Shown here: piece after piece, positions 13,297 through 61,195 of the stretch
How the letters are laid out: every line of letters begins with the position of its first letter
Position numbering within the stretch: position 1 is the stretch's first letter
Source: Octopus vulgaris
Lineage: Eukaryota
Length of the DNA: 64,000 nt
Assembly (NCBI GenBank): GCA_951406725.2
Contig: OX597820.1
Coordinates: 113,398,001-113,462,000 of the forward strand
Direction: 5' to 3'
Made by a program: the position numbers and the translations under genes
The notes under the pieces: generated by a model
The model's database searches: none
What the model was told of the DNA's origin: nothing
What the model saw: only the letters and a program-made list of their open reading frames with translations

Positions 13297-13354
13297 GAGT
13301 CCTTACTGATGAGGCAACCGGATTTGCCGAAACTGAATTAAGTATGAGGAATTC
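13297..13354 (+). ncRNA. Type I hammerhead ribozyme, intact core
   Basis: tcctta CTGATGA ggcaa ccggat ttgcc GAAA ct gaatta a GTA tgagga; stems I, II and III all pair; predicted cleavage after 13344. Confidence 0.85.
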
Positions 13355-25772: not shown

Positions 25773-27201
25773 GAAACAGTTTCTATCCCAGTCGGTCATC
25801 CCGGTTTTCAAACAGGGAAACAGATCCCTCGCAGTCAACTATCGCCCAATCTCACTCACCTCCCACATCATTAAAGTGTTTGAAAGAGTGTTAAGATCAA
25901 GGATAGCTGACTTCCTGGAGACCCACAAACTCCTAAATGCAAATCAGCATGGCTTTCGCTGTGGCAGGGACTGTCTAACACAGCTCTTACACCACATTGA
26001 AGATGTACTCAAAGCCTTGGGAACAGGTTCGAACTCTGACGTCATATATCTTGACTTCAGTAAAGCGTTCGACAGGGTAGACCATAACATCCTACTCTCA
26101 AAATTGGCAAATGTTGGAATCCGTGGAAAAGTTCTACACTGGATTAAGTATTTCCTGGCGAATAGAACACAACATGTTGTAGTTGATGGAGTCCACTCAA
26201 ACCCAGCAAAAGTCACCAGCGGTGTTCCCCAGGGAACTGTTTTGGGTCCGCTACTCTTCATAATTTACGTAAACGACCTTTCCAGCGTCGTACATTACTG
26301 CAAAGTGAAAATATTTGCTGATGACACTAAGCTCCAGCAAATCGTCAATGAAGAAGCAGACCGAACTCAACTCCAGTCTGATCTATATGCTGTGAGTCAA
26401 TGGGCAGACAGAAACAAAATGCAACTGAATGAGGGAAAATTTGAGCTGATGCATTTTGGAAGAAATTCCTCACTAAAACAACCATACTCTCTCCCTTCAG
26501 GGGAACCGCTCACAGCCTCTAACAATATCAGAGACCTGGGTGTAATTGTTGATGACGATCTCAGTTGGAGTGCACACATCAACAAGAAGGTCGATATAGC
26601 TCGTAGGATGAGTTCCTGGATCTTAAGAACTTTCCGGTCCAGAGAACAAGGTGTCATCATACCACTTTTTTCCTCCTTTGTACGGCCACACCTTGAATAC
26701 TGCTGCCCACTGTGGTCTCCTCACACAAGACAAAACATCTCCAGAATTGAGTCACCCCAGAGGGCACTCACTAAACAAATTGAAGGCATGGCTGCTCTCG
26801 ATTATTGGGATCGCCTTAAAGCCTTGAAACTTTACTCCCTCCAGCGTCGCCGTGAGCGGTACATCATTTGTACGATGTGGAAAATATACCGCCAACTTTG
26901 CCCAAACGACCTAAACATTAACTTCAAGGTTCATCCAAGACTTGGACCACGGGCTATACGTCCCCTGCCCAATTCAAGATCACAACATACATGTACACTG
27001 CAACATAATTTCTTTTCCTCAACAGGCCCTGCCCTATTTAACATTGTCCCGAGGGAGATCAAAGAGGAAAAGGATCCCATCAACTTTAAACAGAGTCTGG
27101 ATAGATTCCTTCAAAGAATACCAGATAAGCCACCCATAATTGGATACAACTCACCCAACAAGAACTCACTACTTGAACAAAACTGGATACAACTCACCTA
27201 A
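25771..27201 (+). CDS. Non-LTR reverse transcriptase, C-terminal part of ORF2 (about 476 aa, no true start codon)
   Basis: [47 protein letters not shown] and RDLGV motifs; the upstream IYIY residues are microsatellite. Confidence 0.93.
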
Positions 27202-27345: not shown

Positions 27346-27487
27346 ATATATATGTGTGTATATTTTGCACATTACTTAATCATTGTTATATGTTTTATCT
27401 TATATTTAATCTTTCTATAATATATAATTTTTCTAAATGGTATAATTTAATTTTTCATTATTGAATTGATAAAAGGTGTTTTTTCTA

Positions 27488-27534
<47 letters not shown>

Positions 27535-27537
27535 TAT

Positions 27538-28437
27538 ATACAAGATAAGAAAATGGAGAAATACATCTAAATCAAATATCAATTACCAGATAATACTCAA
27601 TCACATACTTTATTAAACCACCACATAAGAGACTGTAGGGTTAAACATAAAAAAGTAGAACAAAACAGTGTACATAAAGGAATGTACATAAAAAAGTGTA
27701 CATAAAAGAGTAATGTTGTATAATAAGTAGAATATATATAAAAAAAGAGAATATAAATATAAGTAAATATAAATATAAGTAAATATAAATATAAGTATGG
27801 ATTACATCTTACAGCTGTTTCGGCCATGTAGATAAGTATGTCTCATTTTACCAATATTAGTCTTTTATGGTAGGTCAATATATAGATATAAATGAGACAT
27901 TTACAAAAATATCATAAGGCCTCTTCGGAGATATACATATACACATGAGTGCATATACTCACACTCCTATACACATAAAAATATACATATTCATAATGAT
28001 GTAAATAAATAATATAAATTAGTAAACATATATATGTTCCACATTCAATGTTTCAGTTTTTCAACTTAATATTGTGATAATAAACATACACATATTAGTA
28101 CCTAGATGCAAATATACATAGTCAATAGTACATTATATTACTTCCTACTAATTTCCAAAGTGTCATTAAAGTTAGCATCATTATCGTTGTCAATACCATT
28201 AATGCTACCATTATTATCATTCATAATATTATTAACAACGCTTACATTAGGATCCAAAGTGGCACATATGTATGTCCGGGTTCCAGTTAGTAATTTTCCT
28301 TATGACATAAATACACTATTGGATTTGAATTTAAATTATCATTGTCTTCCTCGGTGGTTTAATAAAGTATGTGATTGAGTATTATCTGGTAATTGATATT
28401 TGATTTAGATGTATTTCTCCATTTTCTTATCTTGTAT
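27538..28437 (-). mobile_element. Non-coding HHR element bounded by an inverted repeat of about 84 bp
   Basis: About 27538-27621 is the reverse complement of about 28354-28437. Confidence 0.75.
27803..27935 (-). ncRNA. Type I HHR with extended stem II and palindromic stem III
   Basis: Minus strand reads tatatct CCGAAGA ggcc...(about 90 nt with inner stem atgtctcattt/aaatgagacat)...ggcc GAAA cagct GTA agatgta. Confidence 0.75.
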
Positions 28438-28623
28438 TAGTAATTTGTGGTAAATCATTCTACCTTTGCCCATATAATACAGTAAATGAATTGATTGCAT
28501 CGCAATCCTTAACATCTATGTATTAACTTTGTTGGGTACTTCACTAGCAGTATATTGGATATATATTATCCCATGGAGGGTTGCATTTACAAGCGCTATC
28601 TCAATTTATAAATAAATGAATAT

Positions 28624-29366
28624 GATCTATGTACTTGTGATATTTTTCTGTATTTACCCCCAAACCTTCGTGAGCTGTCTAGAGTAAACATTATCTGAGA
28701 GAAATTTTCTTTAAGTAGTAGAAATGCTAAGAAAATTTTTTTTGGCTGCTATTTCTACTAAGTTCAGTATGTGGCAAAGTAATTTATTTTACTAAGCCCT
28801 AATTATATAATGTAATATTTTGAATTCGCCTTAAATGGTCCTTTTACATACTGAACACTTGGTGAAATTGATTAATTAATTAATTTTACCCTCAATTGTT
28901 GATATTATAATTCATATCTCTCGGTCATACTGCCTTGGTTCTCGCGGTTAAAATATAATGTTTGCTAGATAGACCACGTGGGTGGAATGGGGAGTGCAGA
29001 ATTTTACGCCTGCGCATTTTGAATTTGTTGACACTGTTAGTTGGAGTGGTTCATCTGAAGCGACAAGTCGCTGATAGGTAAAGTTCCTTCTTTTTAGTGT
29101 TTCCAAATCCAAATTAAGAAATTTTGAGCTGACGAAAGAAATGCTGATTTTATTTGGCTAATCTTGAAACGTTGACGTACTCAAACGATCTATGTACTTG
29201 TGATATTTTTCTGTATTTACCCCCAAACCTTCGTGAGCTGTCTAGAGTAAACATTATCTGAGAGAAATTTTCTTTAAGTAGTAGAAATGCTAAGAAAATT
29301 TTTTTTGGCTGCTATTTCTACTAAGTTCAGTATGTGGCAAAGTAATTTATTTTACTAAGCCCTAAT

Positions 29367-29374
<8 letters not shown>
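28624..29374 (+). mobile_element. Retrozyme-like element: 563-bp unit with 188-bp terminal redundancy
   Basis: 28624-28811 matches 29187-29374; an HHR immediately precedes the second copy. Confidence 0.85.
29123..29185 (+). ncRNA. Type I hammerhead ribozyme, intact
   Basis: tttgag CTGACGA aaga...tctt GAAA cg ttga c GTA ctcaaa; predicted cleavage after 29179. Confidence 0.88.
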
Positions 29375-29418
<44 letters not shown>

Positions 29419-30006
29419 GTATGTATATATATATATATGTATGTATGTATGTATGTATGCATGCATGCATGTATGTATGTATGTATGTATGTATGTAATA
29501 TTAATGATTCGAGAGAGAATCAGGTATTTAAATGGTAGGCTCCAAGTTGGGTCGAATTAACTTGTAGACATCACCTAGTAAATACCAGGTTGAGCTGGAG
29601 TCTAGTTGTGATCCCACTAGATTGTTCTTCGTTTGTTTGAAATGCAACGCATTCTCTGATGAAAACGGATTTTTGTTATGACGCAATGTACTCATTCATC
29701 TATTTAAGAAATACATTAGAAACAGTTGTAATGAACTGACATTTATCCATCGTTTATTTATTTATATATTTATTTGCTATGTGTGTCTGTGTTCTCGCGT
29801 GAAGGCACGTCAGTAAGTAGTTAGAACAAAGGGCTTATAATCGTGAGGTTGTGAGATCGATTCCCGGATCTGGCTGCGTGTTGTGCTCTTGGGCAAGACA
29901 TTATTTCACTTTGCTCCATTTCACTCAGCTGTAGAATTGTGTTGCGACGTCACTGGTGCCAAGCCGTATCGATCTTTGCTTTTCCCTTGGATACCATCGG
30001 TGGCTT

Positions 30007-30862
30007 TGATACCATCAGTTGATACCATCTCTGGTAAGGGCTTTGAAATAAAACCAAGAAGAAGTTCCAGACACCCAGCTGAGTACTTGACAGACACTGA
30101 CTTTGCTGACGACATCGCTCTTATCAGTGATTCTCTCTCCAATGCCCAGTCTCTTTTACAATCTCTTGAACAAGCCTCAAATTGTGTAGGTCTTTACCTT
30201 AATGAGACCAAAACTGAATACATAAACAAGTGCCTGTCCAACAGTGATTGCATCATCCACACTCTCAACAGTGCACCTTTAAATATGGTTTCTGATTATA
30301 AATATCTTGGGTCATACATATCATCATCTGGAAAAGACTTTCTAACTAGAAAGGGTATGGCCTGGTCAGCCTGTAATGACATGCATAAGATCTGGTCATC
30401 AAATCTAAGTAGAGACTTCAAACTTGAAATATTCAAAGCCACAGTCGAACCAATCCTACTATATGGCTCAGAAACCTGGACGTTATCAAAGAAGCTTGAG
30501 AGGCGGTTGGATGGAACCTACACTCGCCTCCTTATGAGAGCTCAAAATCTCTCGTGGAGGCGCCATCCAACTAAAATGCAAATATATGGGAAATTACCAC
30601 CTGTGTCATCTCTTGTGAAGGGTAGGAGAGTCCAGTTTGCTGGACATTGTTGTAGAGCTGAAAAAGAAGTAATTTCTACTCTTCTCCTCTGGAAGCCATC
30701 TACTCGCAACACCAGAGGGCGCACACTCTCCTACCCTGATGTAATCTCCAGGGATACAGGCATCCAGCAACAGGACCTCCGTAATGCTATGATGGACCGT
30801 GAAGTCTGGCGCAACATGGTAAATTCCATTGTCTCGACCACGGTCGAACAATGATGATGATG
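30007..30862 (+). mobile_element. 5'-truncated RTE-clade LINE
   Basis: 11-bp TSD atcggtggctt at 29996-30006 and 30863-30873; (TGA)n tail. Confidence 0.92.
30021..30854 (+). CDS. RTE RT C-terminus, open frame (partial)
   Basis: DTDFADDIAL, GLYLNETKT, YKYLGS, LLYGSETW and FAGHCCR motifs. Confidence 0.9.
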   Translation, partial: DTISGKGFEIKPRRSSRHPAEYLTDTDFADDIALISDSLSNAQSLLQSLEQASNCVGLYLNETKTEYINKCLSNSDCIIHTLNSAPLNMVSDYKYLGSYISSSGKDFLTRKGMAWSACNDMHKIWSSNLSRDFKLEIFKATVEPILLYGSETWTLSKKLERRLDGTYTRLLMRAQNLSWRRHPTKMQIYGKLPPVSSLVKGRRVQFAGHCCRAEKEVISTLLLWKPSTRNTRGRTLSYPDVISRDTGIQQQDLRNAMMDREVWRNMVNSIVSTTVEQ

Positions 30863-33819: not shown

Positions 33820-33893
33820 TCCTGCTGAAGAAGATTACACCTGGCGAGTTCCTTGACTTGCTAAACTAAAATCAGAAACCAATTGGTCCAGGA
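33820..33893 (+). ncRNA. Type I HHR with palindromic stem III
   Basis: tcctg CTGAAGA agatt...aatca GAAA ccaattg GTC cagga; the basal stem II pair is mismatched. Confidence 0.75.
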
Positions 33894-54282: not shown

Positions 54283-54333
54283 GGATGAGTGCTGATGAGG
54301 GAGAAAAACTCCTGAAATATGGCATAGACATCC
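54283..54333 (+). ncRNA. Solo type I HHR with imperfect stem I
   Basis: ggatgagtg CTGATGA gggag aaaaa ctcct GAAA t atggc ATA gacatcc. Confidence 0.6.
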
Positions 54334-60998: not shown

Positions 60999-61195
60999 GT
61001 GTGAAGGCGTGTGGCTCAGTGGTTAGGGTATTCGGTTCACGATCGTAAGGTCATGAGTTCAATTCCCGGCGACGCCTTTTGTCCTTGAGCAAGATACTTT
61101 ATTTCACATTACTCCAGTACACTCAGCTGGCAAAAATGAGTAGTACCTGCATTTCAAAAGGCCAGCCTTGTTACAATCTGTGTCGTGCTGAATCA
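60999..61195 (+). mobile_element. SINE family D-like
   Basis: A box tggctcagtgg, B box gagttcaattcc, then tccttgagcaagatact. Confidence 0.8.

Follow-up and report, generated by a model that had tools for sequence, protein, structure and literature searches.

A probable 563-nt non-LTR retrozyme family with a PLE footprint in the genome of Octopus vulgaris

Circular RNAs of animal retrozymes have been shown by Cervera and de la Pena (2020; PMC7229834), whose account names PLEs as the likely mobilisers, and Li, Clavereau and Pollet (2026; 10.64898/2026.07.22.740005) have linked vertebrate retrozymes to pLTRs, one of the nine elements tested there being found to cleave. In the text of both papers, mobilisation by a PLE enzyme and the use of the circle as its template are proposed rather than demonstrated. 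Insertions of PLEs themselves are described as partial tandems with inverted arms, one side of the insertion carrying a 30-40-bp tail (PMC8557442, PMC3846280), and palindromes at their junctions have been read as the result of self-priming (PMC3846280). For a lizard PLE, it is reported that both strands are cut, that two internal RT starts match the tail and that the hammerhead is dispensable in vitro (PMC11167929). The repeat described here, family A of Octopus vulgaris, probably adds a family with a 563-nt unit to the animal non-LTR retrozymes, and its insertions bear a clear PLE footprint.

The window that we analysed is a stretch of 64,000 nt (GCA_951406725.2, contig OX597820.1, positions 113,398,001 to 113,462,000 of the forward strand). 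Its copy of family A and the adjoining sequences are laid out as follows.

27538..28607, no strand: family B, a separate repeat with two head-to-head arms (inverted arms 27538-27635/28340-28437)
28608..28623, no strand: AT-rich linker of 16 nt, from the end of family B to the 5′ end of family A
28624..29374, plus strand: family A insertion, single arm, 751 nt (1.33 units), 5′-truncated, 3′ end at E1
28624..29186, plus strand: one unit (q1-q563), 563 nt
28624..28811, plus strand: first copy of the 188-nt repeat, 28811 being the internal E1 position
28812..28905, plus strand: 94-nt 'tail' between E1 (q188) and E2 (q282 = 28905)
29123..29185, plus strand: predicted type I hammerhead (descriptor match), predicted cut after 29179; helix I 29123-29128/29180-29185, core 29129-29135, GAAA 29166-29169
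29187..29374, plus strand: second copy of the 188-nt repeat, ending at the terminal E1
29375..29497, no strand: (TA)n/(TATG)n microsatellite target

The window copy has one hammerhead and no inverted arm, and begins 16 nt past the end of family B, the linker being likely a remnant of the TA tract. Since it holds a single hammerhead, release of a monomer from this copy is likely impossible. Family B has two TA-adjacent ends about 170 nt apart and lies beside family A copies at L009, L011, L052 and L066; no hammerhead was found in its window copy (27538-28607). The possibility that B and A form one composite insertion was rejected, because B ends at 28607 and the corresponding end is followed by TA at other loci. 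Unrelated 5′-truncated LINE-type RT frames flank the insertion (25780-27201 and 29847-30854; Pfam RVT_1), and on visual inspection a segment at 27440-27490 looks like the 3′ end of a further GIY-YIG PLE family (L238, L239, L245). The descriptor scan returned three more type I hammerhead-like motifs on the plus strand, at 13306-13344, which is compact and canonical-looking, 33825-33888 and 54292-54332, and a marginal tRNA match at 61006-61077 (29.3 bits) is probably the head of a SINE.

A sequence-only reading of this stretch had singled out the 188-nt repeat, and its description holds: the copies at 28624-28811 and 29187-29374 are identical (188/188 nt) and 563 bp apart, the first without a hammerhead upstream and the second starting at 29187, 8 nt past the end of the GUA at 29179. 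A search of the 2.8-Gb genome with the 751-nt insertion gave 1727 candidate places, of which the best 40 were scored, and the two 3′ junction patterns were matched exactly at 232 + 33 and 432 places. With so many genomic copies and exact junction matches, a unique local duplication and an assembly artefact, both named as alternatives in that reading, are excluded. The same reading took the identity of the repeats as a sign of a recent event. The family is indeed young; zero differences, however, has a probability of 0.17 at the mean within-arm divergence of 0.94%, so that the identity itself tells little about age.

The unit is non-coding, all of its stop-to-stop frames being of 69 aa or less, and its G+C content of 34% lies under the 45% used to delimit retrozymes; it contains no RT and GIY-YIG ORF of an autonomous PLE. 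When circularly permuted, the 563-nt monomer has a predicted fold of -149 kcal/mol, as compared with -113 ± 6 for 40 shuffles (z -5.9). A type I hammerhead in each unit is indicated by the descriptor, by an alignment of 137 copies and by covariation with a second family, C. This agrees with the earlier claim of an intact hammerhead with its GUA cleavage site at 29179: the type I descriptor fits 29123-29185, with the GUA at 29177-29179, an interrupted helix II and a near-palindromic helix III. A scan for hammerheads with Rfam gave none at gathering and E-value thresholds, its matches on the TA tract being noise, and the minimum-energy fold of 29105-29200 is without the hammerhead and unremarkable (z -0.25); in the isolated 65-mer the hammerhead fold lies within 0.3 kcal/mol of the optimum. 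The motif is nearly invariant across the 137 aligned family A copies, one subfamily having GUU in place of GUA, by which helix III becomes a perfect palindrome. Helix III is predicted to be capable of forming a 10-bp homoduplex and in this respect resembles the dimer-type hammerheads described in PMC4209133.

Family C (L184:292-548, L203:1501-2056) has a non-coding unit of about 555 nt, about 60% identical to A, with a U3-A8 hammerhead. Between A and C, both members of five of the 15 named hammerhead pairs are changed, C3-G8 becoming U3-A8 among them; pairing is seen in 94.8% of the cells of the alignment, as compared with 28-41% when it is slid; this covariation set comprises nine sequences and is essentially one A-versus-C split. 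Families C and D share the E1-E2 segment with A, and over this segment the likewise non-coding family D (L165:2498-2803; 1799 candidates) is 71-75% identical to A. In 20 loci of family D the family hammerhead was not found. Family C keeps a hydrophobic frame of 80-120 codons across E1/E2, which may be the relic of a PLE N-terminus.

Across the genome, family A copies end at two fixed 3′ sites, E1 and E2, beside (TA)n. From the exact junction matches we sampled all 33 loci of the smaller set (33/33), 94 of the first 100 listed among the 232 and 32 of the first 100 listed among the 432. The six left out of the 232 set were the window itself, loci sampled earlier, or loci within or beside another stretch; the 432 sample comes from one contig only, with partners of loci sampled earlier skipped. 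Long arms were drawn from several queries, which returned the same loci repeatedly. The 3′ flank is TA-rich in 260 of 268 anchored arms, consistent with an AT-rich or microsatellite target, and in 127 E1-anchored arms we saw no continuation into a shared coding flank. Most copies are shorter than one unit and two-armed. Arrays reach 3.6 units, and tandem units as expected of a non-LTR retrozyme exist in the family; two hammerheads occur in 12 of the 268 anchored arms (43 such arms among all loci), though not in the window copy, and subfamilies 83-94% identical to A1 keep units of 562-563 nt. Of the features expected of mobilisation by a PLE, two fixed 3′ ends, 5′ truncation, partial tandems and an inverted head-to-head arm are present. 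Contigs from eight sequencing runs include some that bridge the cut site; the runs are not recorded as RNA, and ends, strand and RNA origin are unreadable from contigs.

The sequence-only reading went further and placed the 5′ boundary of the element at its own ribozyme cleavage site. In the window the two do not coincide, the boundary lying 7 nt past the predicted cut with the whole 3′ strand of helix I in the gap, and a histogram of 5′ ends of copies from across the genome shows scatter and does not support ends made by cleavage. For this histogram anchored arms were placed with four subfamily references, breakpoints being uncertain by several nucleotides owing to microhomology. Of 122 arms that reach the first cut site, four stop no more than 3 nt from it, as against an expectation of 3.0; for the range -10..+15 the count is 10 of 128, with 11.2 expected. 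At second or later sites, five of 65 arms stop within 3 nt (1.6-2.2 expected; p 0.02-0.07 depending on the background rate) and 13 of 70, the window copy included, within -10..+15; for this excess, over both ranges, p is 0.007-0.02 if the overall background is used and 0.04-0.13 if that of long arms, which is higher, is taken instead. The local stop rate at later sites is 0.83 per 100 nt as against 0.48-0.62 nearby. Every cut site is read through in more than 80% of arms. An apparent pile-up of stops among the best matches of the 751-nt search became smaller when long arms obtained with three other queries were included. Past 450 nt, the stop rate of anchored arms goes up from about 0.3 to about 0.5 per 100 nt; this length is near that at which a polymerase going round a circle would run into earlier cDNA.

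A ribozyme-set 5′ end thus does not hold as a rule. What survives of the proposed footprint of reverse transcription on a longer-than-unit RNA is that the template exceeded one unit and that copying went across the ribozyme; the part that had cleavage make the 5′ end is not supported. Read-through is the rule, and run-offs at a cleaved end by a minority of arms are possible. The window copy cannot be assigned to the cleaved-end route, and its 5′ boundary is most likely an ordinary truncation at the point where the copying ended, not the mark of a ribozyme cut.

Among 154 distinct head-to-head pairs, 132 join E1 to E2, three combine two arms with the same end, and in 19 one of the arms ends elsewhere; E1 is accordingly joined to E2 in 132 of the 135 insertions ending at fixed sites. 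The arms of one insertion differ by 0.94%, as compared with a median of 4.5% to other arms (82 pairs), the partner being strictly the closest arm in 31 of the 82 and tied in 22. Neither arm is contained in the other in 58 of the 132 pairs (shuffled value 58.8), and such non-nested pairs need two primings, which rules out a simple fold-back for them. In 23 of the 132 pairs the two arms have stops no more than 10 nt apart in unit position, as against 5.7 by shuffling (maximum 15). Fifteen of these stop in the same turn and eight one turn apart; for six of the eight the point is at q182-259, on E1 or between it and E2, which is what a circle broken once would produce. Successive tandem passes within one arm differ by a mean of 0.94%, and alleles absent from other insertions comprise 21 common to both passes (17 of 96 arms) and 82 unshared, figures that were computed before self-pairs and cross-locus mis-pairs were removed from the pair set. 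The private alleles common to both passes point to re-copying of one monomer; later mutation explains the unshared ones, and linear multimer templates would do so too. Shared rare alleles are enriched in A>G and T>C (25/46 versus 35/161 unshared). RNA editing was considered as their source, A>G being enriched (13/46 versus 13/161), but T>C is as frequent (12); the enrichment is therefore not strand-specific, and editing was rejected.

These observations suggest that family A is probably a protein-free, high-copy non-LTR retrozyme mobilised by the RT/GIY-YIG enzyme of a PLE, with the window copy as a 5′-truncated single arm. It is likely that one RNA, probably a circle, is copied from both sides of a DNA break. 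The few two-hammerhead copies would be transcribed, and their RNA, once cleaved by the two ribozymes acting as a pair, would be closed by ligation to a circle of 563 nt; the enzyme would then, to judge from the fixed ends, nick both strands of (TA)n, one cDNA starting at E1 and the other at E2. The cDNAs would cross the ribozyme junction of the presumed circle, as the read-through in DNA indicates, and stop at about 0.3-0.5% per nt, after which the two ends may be joined head to head or one arm lost, as in the window copy. It is tempting to speculate, with rather less assurance, that a dimeric PLE enzyme holds one 563-nt circle and primes both (TA)n strands from two fixed start sites, one per strand. 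The 'tail' would then reflect an obligatory assignment of E1 and E2 to the strands, arrays would be rolling-circle cDNA, and stops at the same position would mark a break in the circle or halted enzymes. Against the PLE-retrozyme reading count the 94-nt tail, the weak excess of stops at later sites, the dependence of the covariation largely on the split between A and C, the preponderance of unshared over shared private alleles, and the fact that the 50 GIY-YIG loci checked yielded no autonomous PLE whose pLTR is homologous.

Alternatively, as a less probable but still substantial option, a PLE could copy a linear RNA that reads through tandem source arrays and is never cut, the ribozyme being dispensable and no circle involved. 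Arrays of several units do exist and read-through of the cut site is equally expected; private alleles common to both tandem passes, however, require that one monomer served twice as template at some stage, long arrays and arms with two hammerheads are rare, and unit length is kept in the diverged subfamilies. It is improbable that the template was a linear RNA with a hammerhead-cleaved 5′ end, from which the window copy ran off with the loss of 7 nt. The nearness of the window boundary to the cut, the five of 65 stops at later sites (seven of 67 within -3..+8, window excluded) and three loci whose start lies 2 nt or less from the site (L264, L323, L351) would agree with it, but the first site has no excess, most arms read through, and the later-site excess was spotted post hoc, with p 0.07-0.13 against the long-arm background. 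Self-priming by fold-back, as PMC3846280 proposes for rotifer PLEs, in place of two target primings, is slightly more improbable still. It could account for the near-palindromic junctions of 23 of the 132 pairs, and a first count of 104 anchored pairs, some of its rows mis-paired, had pointed slightly the same way (47 non-nested versus 54.9); in the cleaned set non-nested pairs are at the shuffled value, and the nearly constant pairing of E1 with E2 would go unexplained.

As for a helper enzyme, matches to GIY-YIG are abundant in this genome (148 of the best 150 scored among 6136 candidates), many of them in 781-aa frames. At L244:3971-6316 lies an intact ORF of 781 aa with RT and GIY-YIG domains, one of many near-identical copies, whose linker carries a cysteine motif of Neptune type; the label Neptune-like follows the description in PMC8557442, no tree having been built. 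This PLE leaves the same footprint as family A: in its family the hammerhead is of the U3-A8 type, the targets are TA, an inverted arm occurs and the two ends are separated by 36 nt. No homology of the 781-aa family to the family A unit was detected, and it is therefore a helper candidate only. Likewise, no pLTR homology to the unit was seen in 50 GIY-YIG loci checked among the 6136 candidates, and no match to the family C frame lay in a frame above 229 aa among the 150 matches listed; neither nucleotide homology nor that reading frame led to a linked helper ORF, most tblastn matches in this search having come from non-coding flanks of the query.

Neither family A nor a counted E1-E2 pairing rule was found in a literature search of mainly openly readable main texts; supplementary lists of hammerheads could include the family. 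As described in PMC7229834 and 10.64898/2026.07.22.740005, metazoan non-LTR retrozymes have in common with family A tandem units that are non-coding and low in GC and carry a single type I hammerhead, a strongly self-paired predicted circle and co-occurrence with PLEs. The 563-nt unit is longer than the typical 170-400 nt and within the 51-972 nt of Li et al.; most family A copies, in contrast to typical retrozymes as described there, are under one unit and two-armed. Homology of pLTRs to a PLE is given for 21 Xenopus retrozyme cases, whereas for family A the search found none; cleavage and circles are predictions in the case of family A. Non-autonomous Chlamys PLEs such as MRC1 are likewise non-coding and multicopy head-to-tail with pseudo-LTRs, but according to PMC8557442 they resemble autonomous partners at the 3′ end and their clade is described without canonical hammerheads. 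Family A offers countable footprints in its E1-E2 pairing, same-template arms and cut-site read-through, together with a small, defined substrate and, in the same genome, an intact candidate enzyme. Its structural features are shared with the EN+ PLEs Neptune, Poseidon and Naiad, as portrayed in PMC8557442, PMC3846280 and PMC11167929: partial tandems, 5′ truncation, a head-to-head inverted arm, a tail on one side, two RT starts, AT or (TA)n targets and a hammerhead upstream of the starts. Family A differs from them in having no ORF, in a tail of 94 rather than 30-40 nt and in a one-tail rule that is nearly absolute.
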